DNA from: Herpetosiphon aurantiacus DSM 785
GTDB lineage: Bacteria > Chloroflexota > Chloroflexia > Chloroflexales > Herpetosiphonaceae
DNA length: 64,000 nt
Reading direction: 5' to 3'
Assembly: GCA_000018565.1 (NCBI GenBank)
Contig: CP000875.1
Location: forward strand, 441,199-505,198
Position numbers and translations under genes: made by a program. Below, piece after piece: positions 38,001 to 41,133 of this stretch. The notes under the pieces were generated by a model. The model ran no database searches, had not been told where the DNA came from, and saw only the letters and a list, made by a program, of their open reading frames with translations. Each line of letters opens with the position of its first letter. Positions within the stretch are counted from its first letter, which is position 1.

Positions 38001-39239
38001 TCACAGTTGGAAGGTATCGCGAGCCAAAACCAAGGCTTCGGCCAAACGATCAATTTCTTCCTCAAGCGTGTATAGGTAGAATGATGCGCGTACCGTTGCT
38101 GGCACGCCAAAAATATCGTGCAATGGATGGGTGCAATGATGCCCAGCCCGCACTGCAATCCCTTGGGTATCGAGAATCGCTGCCACATCGTGGGCATGCA
38201 CACCTGCAAGGGTAAAGCTCAACAAGCCACCGCGCTCGGCAGCAGGTGGACCAAAAATGGTCAACCCATCGATGGCGCTGAGTTTATCCCAAGCGTAGTG
38301 GGTCAATTGGCGTTCGCGCTCGTGAATCGCCTGCATCCCAAGTTCATTCAAGAAGTCAATCGCCGCGCCAAGGCCAATCGCCTCGGCAATCGCTGGCGTG
38401 CCTGCCTCGAATTTCCATGGGAGATCGTTCCATGAGCTTTCGCGTAGCCCGACCCGTTTGATCATATCGCCGCCACCCATAAACGGCGGCATGGCTTCAA
38501 GCAATTCGCGCCGCGCCCACAGCACCCCAATCCCAGTTGGACCGCACATTTTATGCCCCGAAAAGGCCAAGAAATCGCAGCCAAGTGCTTGAACATTGAC
38601 GGGAATATGTGGCACACTTTGCGCCCCATCCAGCAGCACCAAGGCTCCAACCTGTTTGGCCGCCGCAATCACCCGTTCAACTGGATTGATCGTGCCCAAC
38701 ACATTCGACATGTGGGTCATGGCGACCAATTTGGTGCGTTCAGTCAATAGTTGATCAAGGTGGCTGAGATCAAGTCGGCCTTGATCATCAAGCTCGATAA
38801 AATCAAGCTCTACACCAGTTTGGGCTGCTAGCAATTGCCATGGCACTAAATTTGAATGATGCTCGCTGACTGTGAGCAAAATTCGATCGCCCGCTTGCAA
38901 ATTAGCACGGCCCCAGCTTTGGGCAACCAAGTTAATCGCTTCGGTCGCGTTGCGAGTAAAAATAATTTCTTTGGTCGATTTTGCGCCGATAAAGCGGCCA
39001 ATCGTGCGGCGCGTGCCTTCATAGGCTTCGGTGGCGGCTTCGCTAATCTGATACACACCTCGATGAACATTCGCATTAATCGTGCGATAATAGCGATCCA
39101 TCGCATCAAGCACTGCTAGCGGCTTTTGGGCAGTTGCGGTGCTATCCAAATAGGCTAGGCGATGGCCGTTAATCGATTGATCCAAGAGCGGGAATTGCTC
39201 GCGAATGGCCTGAATATCAAGGGTTGTTTGTACAGACAT
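38001..39239 (-). CDS. sufS: Cysteine desulfurase SufS
   Basis: 412 aa class V aminotransferase with the PLP-Lys region FLAFSGHKMCGPTGIGVLW and active-site RAGHHCTHP. Confidence 0.95.
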   Translation of the reverse strand: MSVQTTLDIQAIREQFPLLDQSINGHRLAYLDSTATAQKPLAVLDAMDRYYRTINANVHRGVYQISEAATEAYEGTRRTIGRFIGAKSTKEIIFTRNATEAINLVAQSWGRANLQAGDRILLTVSEHHSNLVPWQLLAAQTGVELDFIELDDQGRLDLSHLDQLLTERTKLVAMTHMSNVLGTINPVERVIAAAKQVGALVLLDGAQSVPHIPVNVQALGCDFLAFSGHKMCGPTGIGVLWARRELLEAMPPFMGGGDMIKRVGLRESSWNDLPWKFEAGTPAIAEAIGLGAAIDFLNELGMQAIHERERQLTHYAWDKLSAIDGLTIFGPPAAERGGLLSFTLAGVHAHDVAAILDTQGIAVRAGHHCTHPLHDIFGVPATVRASFYLYTLEEEIDRLAEALVLARDTFQL

Positions 39240-39284
39240 AACTCACCAATATCCGATTCCATAAAGGAAACCATGAATTGTTTA

Positions 39285-39940
39285 TTTGATCCACGAAGGA
39301 CACGAATGTTTGGATTTGGTATTTCTACCAAGCTTTATAGGCAATTAATAAAAAATTGCTTATTTATCCACGAAGGACACGAAGAGCACGAATGTTTGGC
39401 TCTTGTGATCTGTAAAAATTCATGGGCAATTAACGAGTTGATAGTAACGTCAACGAACTAAGCGTTTCCATTCCAACTTGCCAAGACTACCAAAATTAAT
39501 CAATAGACCAACCCGAAACTGGGTTGCTTTGAGATAATTAATCAGTTGCGCTTCTTCGAGAGTTGTCAAACGATTTAGCGCTTTTAGCTCAACAATAATT
39601 TGGTTGTAACAAATAAAATCAGCAATATAGGTTTTTGGAGTAATTGCTGTTTATAACGAATTGCCAAAGGTGTTTGGGCTGCAAACTGAATTTGGCGTTG
39701 TGCCAACTCTAATGCAAGTGCTTCTTGATAAACAGCCTCTAAAAAGCCACTACCCAACTCGCGATGCACTTCAATCGCCGCCCCAACCACCGCGAACACT
39801 TCGTCTGCCAAAAGAATCGTTGCCATCCACGCCTCCCAAAAATAGTTAGTTCGTCGCTGTAACTAGATACATAAACTAACTATTTTTGGGATCACACAAA
39901 AAACATCCTTCGTGTCCTTCGTGCCCTTCGTGGATCAAAT
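39285..39940. mobile_element. Inverted-repeat-flanked roughly 650-bp insert in the sufD-sufS spacer carrying a GxxExxY-family gene (MITE-like or IVS-like element)
   Basis: The left arm has two copies of TTTGATCCACGAAGGACACGAA(GAGCACGAA)TGTTTGG (39285-39313 and 39361-39399). The right arm has the inverted copy AAACATCCTTCGTGTCCTTCGTGCCCTTCGTGGATCAAAT (39901-39940). It ends 3 bp before the sufD stop. Confidence 0.5.
39450..39826 (-). pseudogene. GxxExxY-family protein gene with a -1/+1 frameshift at an A5 run (around 39615-39625)
   Basis: Frame A encodes [61 protein letters not shown]. The conserved C-terminal half, [62 protein letters not shown], continues in another frame, and together they total about 125 aa. 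Confidence 0.65.
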
Positions 39941-39942
39941 CG

Positions 39943-41133
39943 TTAGACTTTTTCGGCGACGATGGTTTCGACCCGTTCGCGGACAGCTTCATCAGGAATC
40001 ATATCGATGATTTCGCCGACAAAGCCCAACACGATCGTGCGCTTGGCTTCGGCAAACGGCAAACCGCGTGATTGCAGATAGAACAACTGCTCTTCGTCGA
40101 TTTGGCCGCTGGTTGAGCCGTGGCCTGCCTTAACTTCATTGGCATCAATCTCCAAGCCTGGAATTGAATCCGAGCGTGAATTTTTGCTCAAGTGCAAGGC
40201 ATTTTCGCGCAAGTCGGAGTTGGTTCCTTGTCCAGTGGCAGGGATTTTGACCATGCCATCGAAAACGGCATAGGCTTCATCATCAACCACGGTTTTGAAG
40301 TTGATTTGGCCTTCGGTATTCAAGCCAATGTGATTGAGCTTGGGCGCAACCAGCAAGTTTTGCTTGCCATTGCCATACAACAAGCCATTCCAATTGACGC
40401 TTGAGCCGTTGCCGCTCAAATTGGCTTCCAAGGTTACGTGCTGCACAGCGCTACCAACCACCACGTTGAGCCATTCGGCTTGGGCATCGCGGTTGATACG
40501 AATTTGTTGGCTGCCCAACAGATAGACATTGCTGTTCAAGGTTTGCACGCTGCTGAAGCCAACTTGGCCACCATCGCCAACCTCAATTTCAGCCCCGGTC
40601 AAGACCACTGCGCTACCGGCAAAATCAGCTGAGCTAATTTCTTCGATCACGTTGATCGAGCTATGGCGCTCGGTGACGATTAATGTGCGGGGGGCGACAA
40701 CCGTGCCAGCATTGCTGAGGTGATAGCGAATCCGCACCAACTCTTCAACCGCAACATCTTTGGCAACGTGAATAAAAATCCCGCCGTTGACCAAAGCATT
40801 ATTGAGCGCTGAAAATGGATCGCGGCTGGTTTGGACGGCGCTGCCAAGCACTCGTTGCACCAATTCGGCGTGGCTTTGAATCGCTTCGGCTAAAGGCAGA
40901 ATCGTCACGCCTTCCGCGCCAGCAAAATCAACTGAAACTTCGGCCTCAGCCAGCGTGTAATCAGCGATATTGAAGCCCTTCAAATTGGTTCGTCGCCAAT
41001 CTGGTTGCTCAGCGGTTTCGAATGCTTCCCAAGCTTCGCGACGGCGGCTGGTCAGCCAGCTTGGCTCGTTGCGACTGGCCAACAAAGCCTCAAATTGCGC
41101 CAGATCAAAGGTAGATTGCAAATTAGCTGGCAT
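39943..41133 (-). CDS. sufD: Fe-S cluster assembly protein SufD
   Basis: 396-aa SufB/D-family beta-helix protein lying between sufC and sufS and overlapping sufC by 11 bp. Confidence 0.9.
   Translation of the reverse strand: MPANLQSTFDLAQFEALLASRNEPSWLTSRRREAWEAFETAEQPDWRRTNLKGFNIADYTLAEAEVSVDFAGAEGVTILPLAEAIQSHAELVQRVLGSAVQTSRDPFSALNNALVNGGIFIHVAKDVAVEELVRIRYHLSNAGTVVAPRTLIVTERHSSINVIEEISSADFAGSAVVLTGAEIEVGDGGQVGFSSVQTLNSNVYLLGSQQIRINRDAQAEWLNVVVGSAVQHVTLEANLSGNGSSVNWNGLLYGNGKQNLLVAPKLNHIGLNTEGQINFKTVVDDEAYAVFDGMVKIPATGQGTNSDLRENALHLSKNSRSDSIPGLEIDANEVKAGHGSTSGQIDEEQLFYLQSRGLPFAEAKRTIVLGFVGEIIDMIPDEAVRERVETIVAEKV

Follow-up and report, generated by a model that had tools for sequence, protein, structure and literature searches.

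The suf operon of Herpetosiphon aurantiacus DSM 785 lies within a 64,000-nt stretch of the genome (GenBank contig CP000875.1, positions 441,199 to 505,198; hereafter "the window") and carries, between sufD and sufS, an insert in which a frameshifted gene of the GxxExxY family (PF13366) is enclosed by inverted arms made of short tandem units. Taken alone, this copy is an ordinary pseudogene with a strain-specific frameshift, and its main interest is the family-wide pattern that it exposes. Judged by the metagenomic loci described below, a nuclease gene inside a tandem-unit palindrome is the usual layout of the GxxExxY subfamily tested. The explanation that we favor, with slightly better than even confidence, is that the insert is a selfish nuclease cassette without a promoter, housed in a dispersed foldback repeat, and we infer how it spreads. 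The PF13366/GxxExxY family is large, is of unknown function, and is scarcely named in the literature searched; the layout, the co-orientation with upstream genes, and the block exchanges reported here would suggest for it a target, a mode of expression, and a life cycle that can be tested. A GxxExxY gene within a tandem-unit palindrome is undescribed in the literature searched, the coverage of which is incomplete, and earlier knowledge of this layout is possible.

Tandem-unit repeats with and without GxxExxY genes

We fetched 80 metagenomic GxxExxY loci whose proteins are 50-68% identical to the query, and 72 of these could be tested for flanking repeats. An inverted repeat (score of at least 26) connects the 200-nt flanks of the gene in 59 of the 72 loci versus 0 of 72 shuffles. 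When flanks of 150 nt were defined from open reading frames (ORFs), inverted repeats were found at 35 of 62 GxxExxY genes versus 3 of 103 neighboring ORFs, and a control with 150-nt flanks in loci collected by an arm motif (see below) gave 9 of 718 ORFs. In every case, the arms consist of units in tandem that recur every 9 nt (94 spacings) or every 10 nt (61 spacings), and they usually open with (A)TCC. The unit varies by locus (CACGAAGG, CGCAGATT, CGCGAATT, CACGAATT, CGCTAATT, or CRCGGATT), and the units, CACGAAGG, CGCAGATT, CGCGAATT, and CACGGATT among them, conform to N-C-R-C-N-R-A-K-K. Near relatives of the query mostly carry CACGAAG units, and distant ones carry CGCAGATT or CGCGAATT. Because the metagenome contigs have no assigned host taxonomy, this association between unit and clade is inseparable from shared ancestry.

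In 55 of 58 loci (p = 2e-13), the gene upstream of the GxxExxY gene shares its orientation, the median gap being 101 nt, and downstream neighbors are divided between 25 co-oriented and 30 opposite. This orientation bias fits a promoter-less gene that would ride on the transcript of its upstream neighbor. At one locus (L225), the 5′ arm occupies the entire 30-nt gap from the upstream stop codon to the ATG, and at two others (L146 and L154) the start codon is provided by an arm unit, which in L146 is GAATGAACGC. All-against-all blastn comparison of the loci returned orthologous pairs and no clear transposed copy. Only 2 relatives were found in viral contigs, and phage carriage is thus not a major route.

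Several individual loci show further peculiarities. L146 carries a truncated 5′ GxxExxY copy in tandem ahead of the full gene (L146:1150-2100), and its gene is followed by three repeats of a 3′ arm plus spacer, resembling the doubled 3′ arm in the window. A GxxExxY gene at L033:216-340, which has a 3′ arm of the CACGAAG type, abuts what is, by appearance only, a tRNA gene's 3′ end (GGTTCAAGTCCCCC).

Repeats of the same type are widely dispersed. A scan for the motif ATCCACGAAGRRCACGAA in one genome per species returned at least 115 stretches, and the statements that follow in this paragraph refer to the matches listed. The motif occurs in Chloroflexota (several Herpetosiphon species, Anaerolineae, Caldilineaceae, Dehalococcoidia, and Roseiflexus) and also in Planctomycetota, Acidobacteriota, Verrucomicrobiota, Bacteroidota, delta-proteobacterial metagenome-assembled genomes, Sumerlaeota, Latescibacterota, and others. 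A third unit, or an inverted partner no more than 200 nt away, accompanies 112 of 137 motif instances, and we therefore regard them as genuine family members. The majority of the stretches are gene-less hairpins with loops of 14-130 nt, and a GxxExxY gene adjoins the motif in 5 of 115 loci. These five loci have CACGAAG units upstream on the coding strand, or CTTCGTG...GTGGAT directly past the stop codon. Other cargo is rare and comprises a membrane protein, an HD-like protein, and one further ORF that is probably HicB-like as read from its sequence. The split of gene-less hairpins among tandem, convergent, and divergent gene pairs is the same as background, and we claim no preference for gene ends. 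A plasmid search with the 3′ arms gave chance matches only, none of them in Herpetosiphon.

Some intergenic regions of Herpetosiphon contain nested arrays (L060:4940-5190, L086:3945-4295, L034, and L013) composed of CACGAAG, CGCGAAG, CACAGATT, CACGAATT, GGCTATAGG, and GGGGTCAGG, which are reminiscent of the short tandemly repeated repetitive (STRR) sequences of cyanobacteria. At orthologous sites in two Herpetosiphon species (L012 and L046), unit number and inner sequence differ.

The insert in the sufD-sufS spacer

The minus-strand gene order in the window is sufR, sufC, sufD, a 703-nt gap, sufS, sufU, a 76-aa ORF, and sufB, and exact-sequence matches identify SufD as ABX03063.1 and SufS as ABX03060.1. 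An earlier reading of the window from its letters (hereafter the sequence-only reading) had described the gap as non-suf DNA bounded by a motif of 9-nt sub-repeats, with two copies inverted against one, and had called for a genome-wide search for the motif. Its statements on the sequence were all confirmed. The empty spacers of relatives (see below) and a repeat search support the two descriptions, and the motif scan across many phyla shows that the arms are members of a dispersed repeat family. The 5′ arm is made up of three CACGAAGGN units and begins 2 nt past the sufD stop codon (Table 1). Two inverted repeats connect the arms, one of 30 nt with 87% complementarity (I1) and one of 23 nt with 96% (I2), and the arm ends are TTGATCC...GGATCAA. 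A 15-mer from the arm core, allowing two or fewer mismatches, occurs 6 times in the window versus 0.06 expected. The 32-nt core of the proximal 3′ arm is identical in three related contigs (L007, L008, and L009), and the distal 3′ arm plus a 77-nt spacer is an additional copy that relatives lack. Two Logan contigs (L005 and L006) terminate inside the 5′ arm at position 39912, as is expected of a multi-copy repeat.

The sequence-only reading missed two features. One is a fourth arm-like copy at 31253-31291, which belongs to a gene-less member of the repeat family (Table 1). There, a CACGAAG/CACAAAG-type arm stands opposite a AATTTGTGTAATTCGTGG arm of CACGAATT/CACAAATT units, so mixed-type hairpins exist. 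The other is a hairpin that sits between the 5′ arm and the ribosome-binding site of the GxxExxY gene, and its 3′ half extends into that site. Six Herpetosiphon loci conserve this pre-gene hairpin, including 5 pairs in which both partners have changed. None of the other loci fetched was found to have it, and it is thus confined to Herpetosiphon.

A promoter and terminator scan yielded nothing beyond the expectation from shuffles, the scan being based on sigma-70 and possibly ill-suited to Chloroflexota. Transcription of the cassette is presumably supplied by sufD. An Rfam scan of the insert gave zero matches, and a scan of 17 loci of various unit types gave only sub-threshold matches to miRNA hairpins.

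Table 1. Coordinates of the insert, its host genes, and a gene-less relative in the window
Feature	Position	Strand	Details
sufD	39943..41133	-	Stop codon 39945-39943; host gene upstream of the cassette, same orientation
sufD-sufS gap	39240-39942	-	5′ arm, hairpin, ribosome-binding site, GxxExxY gene, two inverted 3′ arms
5′ arm	39901..39940	-	ATTTGATCC, then 9-nt units CACGAAGGG, CACGAAGGA, CACGAAGGA, then TGTTT
Pre-gene hairpin	39834..39891	-	Perfect 18-bp stem TCCCAAAAATAGTTAGTT / AACTAACTATTTTTGGGA, loop of 22 nt
Putative ribosome-binding site GGGAGG	39832..39837	-	5 nt ahead of ATG, partly within the hairpin stem; read from sequence
GxxExxY / PF13366 pseudogene	39450..39826	-	Frame 1, 39826-39632; frame 3, 39635-39450 including stop codon
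A5 run, one A lost	39632..39636	-	Orthologs have CAA AAA ACC (A6; alignment A1)
Proximal 3′ arm	39363..39400	-	Three inverted units; coding strand AAACATTCGTGCTCTTCGTGTCCTTCGTGGATAAA
Distal 3′ arm	39284..39313	-	Two inverted units, ending in GTGGATCAAAT
sufS	38001..39239	-	ATG at 39239; host gene downstream of the cassette
Gene-less member of the repeat family	31190..31291	-	AACCACGAAGAACACAAAGAGCACGAAGG, about 50 nt on AATTTGTGTAATTCGTGG, directly past a gene end

The two frames of the GxxExxY gene meet at the A5 run, as the sequence-only reading had stated, and one added A restores a 125-aa product with full-length matches to PF13366 (PDDEXK_3; E 2e-42; 144.5 bits versus a cut-off of 22; profile positions 3-117 of 117) and TIGR04256 (E 8e-43; 145.5 bits versus a cut-off of 35). 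That reading had left open whether the frameshift marks a pseudogene, a sequencing error, or programmed frameshifting, and only the pseudogene fits what was found. The window copy has no uninterrupted ORF as expected of a functional family member, and its Herpetosiphon orthologs carry A6 at the shift site with an open frame (alignment A1). The same A5 is present in contigs from four other datasets (L001-L004), and because these match the window at 99.84-100% identity across 12-21 kb, they are the same strain sequenced again rather than independent lineages. Since these four other assemblies share the A5 run, the deletion is real for DSM 785, with confirmation that comes solely from re-sequencing of that strain.

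We consider it very improbable that the gene remains functional in DSM 785, either because the frameshift is a sequencing error or because it is bypassed by programmed -1 frameshifting. The shift does coincide with a homopolymer, and the frame would be regained if a -1 slip occurred on C CAA AAA C. However, the A5 run recurs in those four assemblies, the site does not contain a canonical slippery heptamer (X XXY YYZ), and the A6 orthologs, with one extra A, are already in frame and need no shift. A run of five A's is insufficient for efficient transcriptional slippage. Programmed frameshifting at this site is thus unlikely.

The frame-restored protein carries the G-x-x-E-x-x-Y motif and the PD-(D/E)XK catalytic residues, and D70, E80-x-K82, and Q94-xxx-Y98 are invariant in a 34-sequence alignment (A2). 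Based on these residues and on an AlphaFold model with a predicted local distance difference test (pLDDT) score of 87.8, the product is predicted to be a Cas4/RecB-like PD-(D/E)XK nuclease. It shares the D, ExK, and QxxxY motifs with those nucleases, but at 125 aa it is about half their size. Moreover, C73 is the sole invariant cysteine in alignment A2, and the protein therefore probably has no four-cysteine Fe-S cluster such as that of Cas4. No cas genes were seen among the called neighbors of the loci listed, and searches of PDB by sequence, of PADLOC, and of PHROGs gave no match. The family comprises 15,054 clusters at 50% identity (E <= 0.001). Some members (e.g., P0261, P0280, and P0294) are 250-295 aa long and carry two tandem GxxExxY domains.

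History and exchange of the cassette

The nearest intact proteins, P0001 (95% identity) and P0002 (93%), are encoded on contigs L007, L008, and L009, likewise between sufD and sufS. An intact gene is also present at this site in Herpetosiphon geysericola, H. giganteus, and H. llansteffanensis, and the intact ortholog of H. gulosus (P0136) was placed there via adjacent accession numbers. The gene is thereby intact at the sufD-sufS site in six other Herpetosiphon lineages examined. The ratio of nonsynonymous to synonymous substitution rates (dN/dS) of the intact gene within allele classes (defined below) is 0.05-0.12, and intact copies are under strong purifying selection.

Outside the genus, a sister lineage (L206/L207; SufD 69% identical) has a 627-nt spacer in which degenerate 5′ units and a 3′ arm persist, along with a gene stub of 24 codons. 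The sequence-only reading had called for a search for empty sites in relatives, and two deeper Herpetosiphonaceae-like lineages provide them: the spacer is 88 nt in L208 (SufD 63%) and 70 nt in L209 (SufD 48%), with neither arms nor gene. From the filled site across the genus, the empty spacers in deeper relatives, and the remnant in the sister lineage, we conclude that the cassette is an insertion older than the genus Herpetosiphon. It has decayed independently at least twice, by a frameshift in DSM 785 and by truncation in L206. Given that the empty sites carry no arms, arms and gene would have arrived here together or successively.

No direct repeat that might represent a target-site duplication is visible beside the arms, and the empty L208 and L209 sites are too diverged to be aligned with the flanks. 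Neither the called genes beside the arms in the loci listed nor the ORF screen of the motif loci revealed a transposase. The proposal of the sequence-only reading that the insert resembles a MITE (a miniature transposable element with inverted repeats) thus stands with respect to a dispersed repeat family, but not with respect to a recent and precise insertion, because the insert predates the genus and contains an intact gene under purifying selection in relatives. The failure to find a transposase among the called genes listed and in the ORF screen weakens the MITE comparison further.

The cassette proteins of the genus form two allele classes. Class A comprises those of H. aurantiacus, H. 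gulosus, L007, and L008, and class B comprises those of H. geysericola, H. giganteus, and H. llansteffanensis. Amino acid identity is 90-95% inside a class and 68-72% across classes, and SufD is 94-100% identical throughout. The distribution of these differences is most evident when L008 is compared to H. giganteus (L221). The region of sufC, sufD, and the 5′ arm has 12 differences in about 2085 nt (99.4% identity) and sufS has 0 differences in about 380 nt (100%), while the segment from the pre-gene hairpin to the 3′ arm (L008 4160-4681) is 62-90% identical. Likewise, the cassette gene has a synonymous divergence (dS) of 0.86, versus 0.034 in sufD. An assembly chimera is an unlikely cause of this mosaic, because the L008 allele was recovered again from a second sample (L009) and a class A allele adjoins SufD in the genome of an H. 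gulosus isolate. These comparisons show that the cassette has been replaced between lineages as a block bounded by the arms.

Gene-less repeats are exchanged as well. Over about 1750 nt, L225 and L227 share 99.7% identity, but a different hairpin follows an AlbA_2-domain gene in each: a gene-less CACGAAG hairpin in L225, and a hairpin of CACGGAT units instead in L227. The repeats themselves are thus swapped between near-identical backgrounds.

A second small gene family is found next to similar repeats. L227 carries at 2426-2840 a PF05635 gene (23S_rRNA_IVP, four-helix-bundle) behind GGACTGAG tandem units. This gene is present only in L227 and L228, and is absent from L225 and L230, the backgrounds being 99.7% identical upstream. 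Another PF05635 gene (L162:1586-1915) has CACAAG units ahead of it. It may be that the PF05635 family shares the same kind of vehicle.

Proposed life cycle, alternatives, and known systems

We envision that the cassette lacks its own promoter and that read-through from a co-oriented upstream gene, here sufD, expresses the nuclease. The arms, members of a dispersed foldback family that exists mostly as gene-less hairpins, would give the homology that lets a block of gene plus arms enter or replace other copies by recombination. They might also be the symmetric target of the nuclease. The resulting cycle would resemble that of a free-standing homing endonuclease, with invasion, maintenance, decay, and loss, and insertion into an essential operon would be tolerated owing to the cassette's place at a host gene's tail and to the long stem that closes it.

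Several points weigh against this explanation. That the arms are the target of the nuclease is a guess, and the replacement of blocks could be ordinary inter-strain recombination at a divergent allele. Strong purifying selection may signify host benefit and not selfishness. Homing into a pre-existing palindrome is not seen at the suf locus, where the empty sites are without arms, and no pair of filled and empty states at an otherwise identical palindrome was found among the GxxExxY loci compared. Nor was the same cassette found at two sites in one genome, P0118 and P0006 each having a single context across samples. Finally, about one-fifth of the loci have no arms. One arm-less gene (P0118) is located 20 nt past a gene for a DNA methyltransferase (N6_N4) of about 960 aa and 10 nt before a SNF2/helicase gene of about 1000 aa, and this layout recurs in more than 10 samples (L211-L220). 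P0118 possibly serves as the nuclease component of a restriction- or defense-like operon, and its context suggests that some family members have other roles.

We also entertain, much more tentatively, the idea that GxxExxY nucleases, combined with palindromes built from tandem units of 9-10 nt, constitute an undescribed class of mobile element across phyla, in which the nuclease would recognize the symmetric array and propel the gene that encodes it, and perhaps gene-less hairpins as well, into further repeat copies. Such a class, if real, would be the PD-(D/E)XK counterpart of the RAYT-REPIN pair or a homing endonuclease that targets a dispersed repeat, and it would account for a family of about 15,000 clusters (50% identity) having no known function.

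A different possibility, which we regard as unlikely, is that the insert is an intervening-sequence-like RNA element whose arm duplex is cut by RNase III, such that the cassette mRNA is excised or separated from the suf mRNA. The sequence-only reading had raised this idea and had foreseen a long RNA stem closed by the arms. The stem is indeed predicted: in the fold of the 716-nt insert, the 5′ arm pairs with both 3′ arms (-222.6 kcal/mol, z = -7.4). In addition, the cassette is nearly always co-transcribable with its upstream gene, and PF05635, the other small family with tandem-unit flanks, is named after elements of this kind. However, mismatches between arms on the sense strand at 58 loci comprise 79 G.U and 84 A.C pairs. 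Because G.U pairs are not in excess over A.C pairs, there is no sign of selection for pairing of the sense RNA, and the idea thus gains no specific support. This strand-symmetric pairing points to the DNA level; arm symmetry looks like a DNA-level property or simply the result of shared repeat ancestry. Furthermore, no Rfam family is matched and the cassette lies outside rRNA. RNA processing can nonetheless be compatible with a selfish cassette, as the reason that the insert is tolerated.

It is likewise rather doubtful that the gene encodes a resident nuclease that benefits the host in repair or defense, with the palindromes acting as terminator or stability hairpins and the allele classes arising from diversifying or balancing selection. 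The low dN/dS, the position conserved across the genus, the occurrence of some members within methyltransferase-helicase operons, and the persistence of two old allele classes across species would all be expected in that case. Nevertheless, the gene is missing in the deeper relatives L208 and L209, has decayed in two lineages, gave no PADLOC match, and occurs in unrelated contexts across phyla, and the arms are specific to GxxExxY genes rather than to gene ends generally. A role as an accessory suf gene in Fe-S cluster assembly is least credible of all. Although the gene is within the operon, co-oriented, and conserved in the genus, homologs with the same arms are found beside unrelated genes in other phyla, related suf operons have no such gene, and it is a pseudogene in the type strain. 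The sequence-only reading had proposed that an intact conserved gene in all relatives, together with arms found nowhere else, would point to a resident suf gene. Relatives do hold such a gene, but arm repeats also occur elsewhere, and a resident suf gene consequently does not follow.

The functional likeness of the cassette appears to be greatest to a free-standing homing endonuclease gene or a RAYT-REPIN pair. I-Ssp6803I is an example of a small PD-(D/E)XK homing endonuclease. As with homing endonuclease genes, a small ORF for a predicted nuclease (by sequence and predicted structure only) interrupts a symmetric sequence, is present or absent at one site in relatives (empty in L208 and L209), undergoes recombinational block replacement (L008 versus L221), and decays by frameshift and truncation. 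Unlike them, the cassette is outside any intron or intein, its target is presumably a dispersed repeat instead of one unique, conserved gene, it has been under strong and long-lasting purifying selection, and cleavage by its nuclease is putative.

RAYT genes are flanked by inverted repeat copies (PMC3116915), and in both systems a nuclease-type gene stands between inverted repeats that are also scattered between genes as gene-less hairpins. One could imagine that the GxxExxY nuclease spreads gene-less hairpins in trans, the gene being a stationary, domesticated helper amid its substrates. Gene-less hairpins far outnumber gene-bearing ones, consistent with this proposal, as is the presence of inverted repeats on both sides of the gene. 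We find it improbable nonetheless, because the protein has a PD-(D/E)XK fold and is not an HUH/Y1 transposase, because each arm strings together 9-10 nt units in tandem and is no short GTAG-headed palindrome, and because GxxExxY genes, unlike RAYT genes, are present in many copies per genome. The recurrence of the unit sequence across phyla is a further difference from RAYT/REPIN systems.

Similarity to other known systems is partial. Foldback transposons such as Galileo have internally repetitive terminal inverted repeats (PMC3573991), and the cassette shares with them long terminal inverted repeats built from tandem subrepeats whose number varies between copies. They are, however, eukaryotic, kilobases long, and transposase-bearing, whereas the cassette loci examined showed neither a transposase nor a target-site duplication. 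Like the intervening sequences of 23S rRNA (S23p, PF05635), the cassette is a small ORF within inverted repeats able to form a long stem in the transcript, and PF05635 genes can have similar tandem-unit flanks and presence/absence polymorphism. The cassette differs in its location between protein-coding genes, its protein family, and the absence of a G.U signature from its arms. MITEs have in common with the cassette terminal inverted repeats, many copies, intergenic location, and hairpin potential. The cassette, by contrast, contains a conserved ORF, its copy in the window is ancient and orthologous across the genus, and no related autonomous transposase was seen among the loci listed. Integron cassettes are also promoter-less small ORFs, co-oriented with upstream transcription and bordered by imperfect palindromes, but the arm ends of the insert do not resemble GTTRRRY cores and GxxExxY cassettes are single rather than arrayed. 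No integrase is present among the called genes of L001-L004 or of the loci listed, although no search was aimed at integrases. The cassette departs in such defining features from MITEs, the RAYT system, integron cassettes, and rRNA intervening sequences.

Knowledge of the arms should also improve annotation, as they yield spurious peptides of the HEGHEG/FVSFV type and break short-read assemblies. Peptides translated from arms (e.g., PSCPSCPSW and MIHEGHEGHEE) are seen at 39886-40071 on the plus strand of the window, at L063:6490, and at L115:1897, and ORF finders prolong real genes through arms.

The suf operon in this lineage tolerates three kinds of selfish element, namely the cassette, a PIN toxin pair, and SufB inteins. 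The 76-aa ORF between sufU and sufB (37372-37602, minus strand) encodes a hydrophobic stretch and has no Pfam match on record; it is also conserved, at 76 aa, in H. geysericola, and a 70-aa ORF is located at the same place in L208. In the sister lineage, an 80-aa ORF and a PIN-domain gene with a toxin-antitoxin-like arrangement replace it between sufU and sufB (L206:5855-6479 and L207:3881-4505). An intein with Hint and LAGLIDADG_3 matches interrupts SufB in the deeper relatives (L208:6818-8203 and L209:6618-8215).

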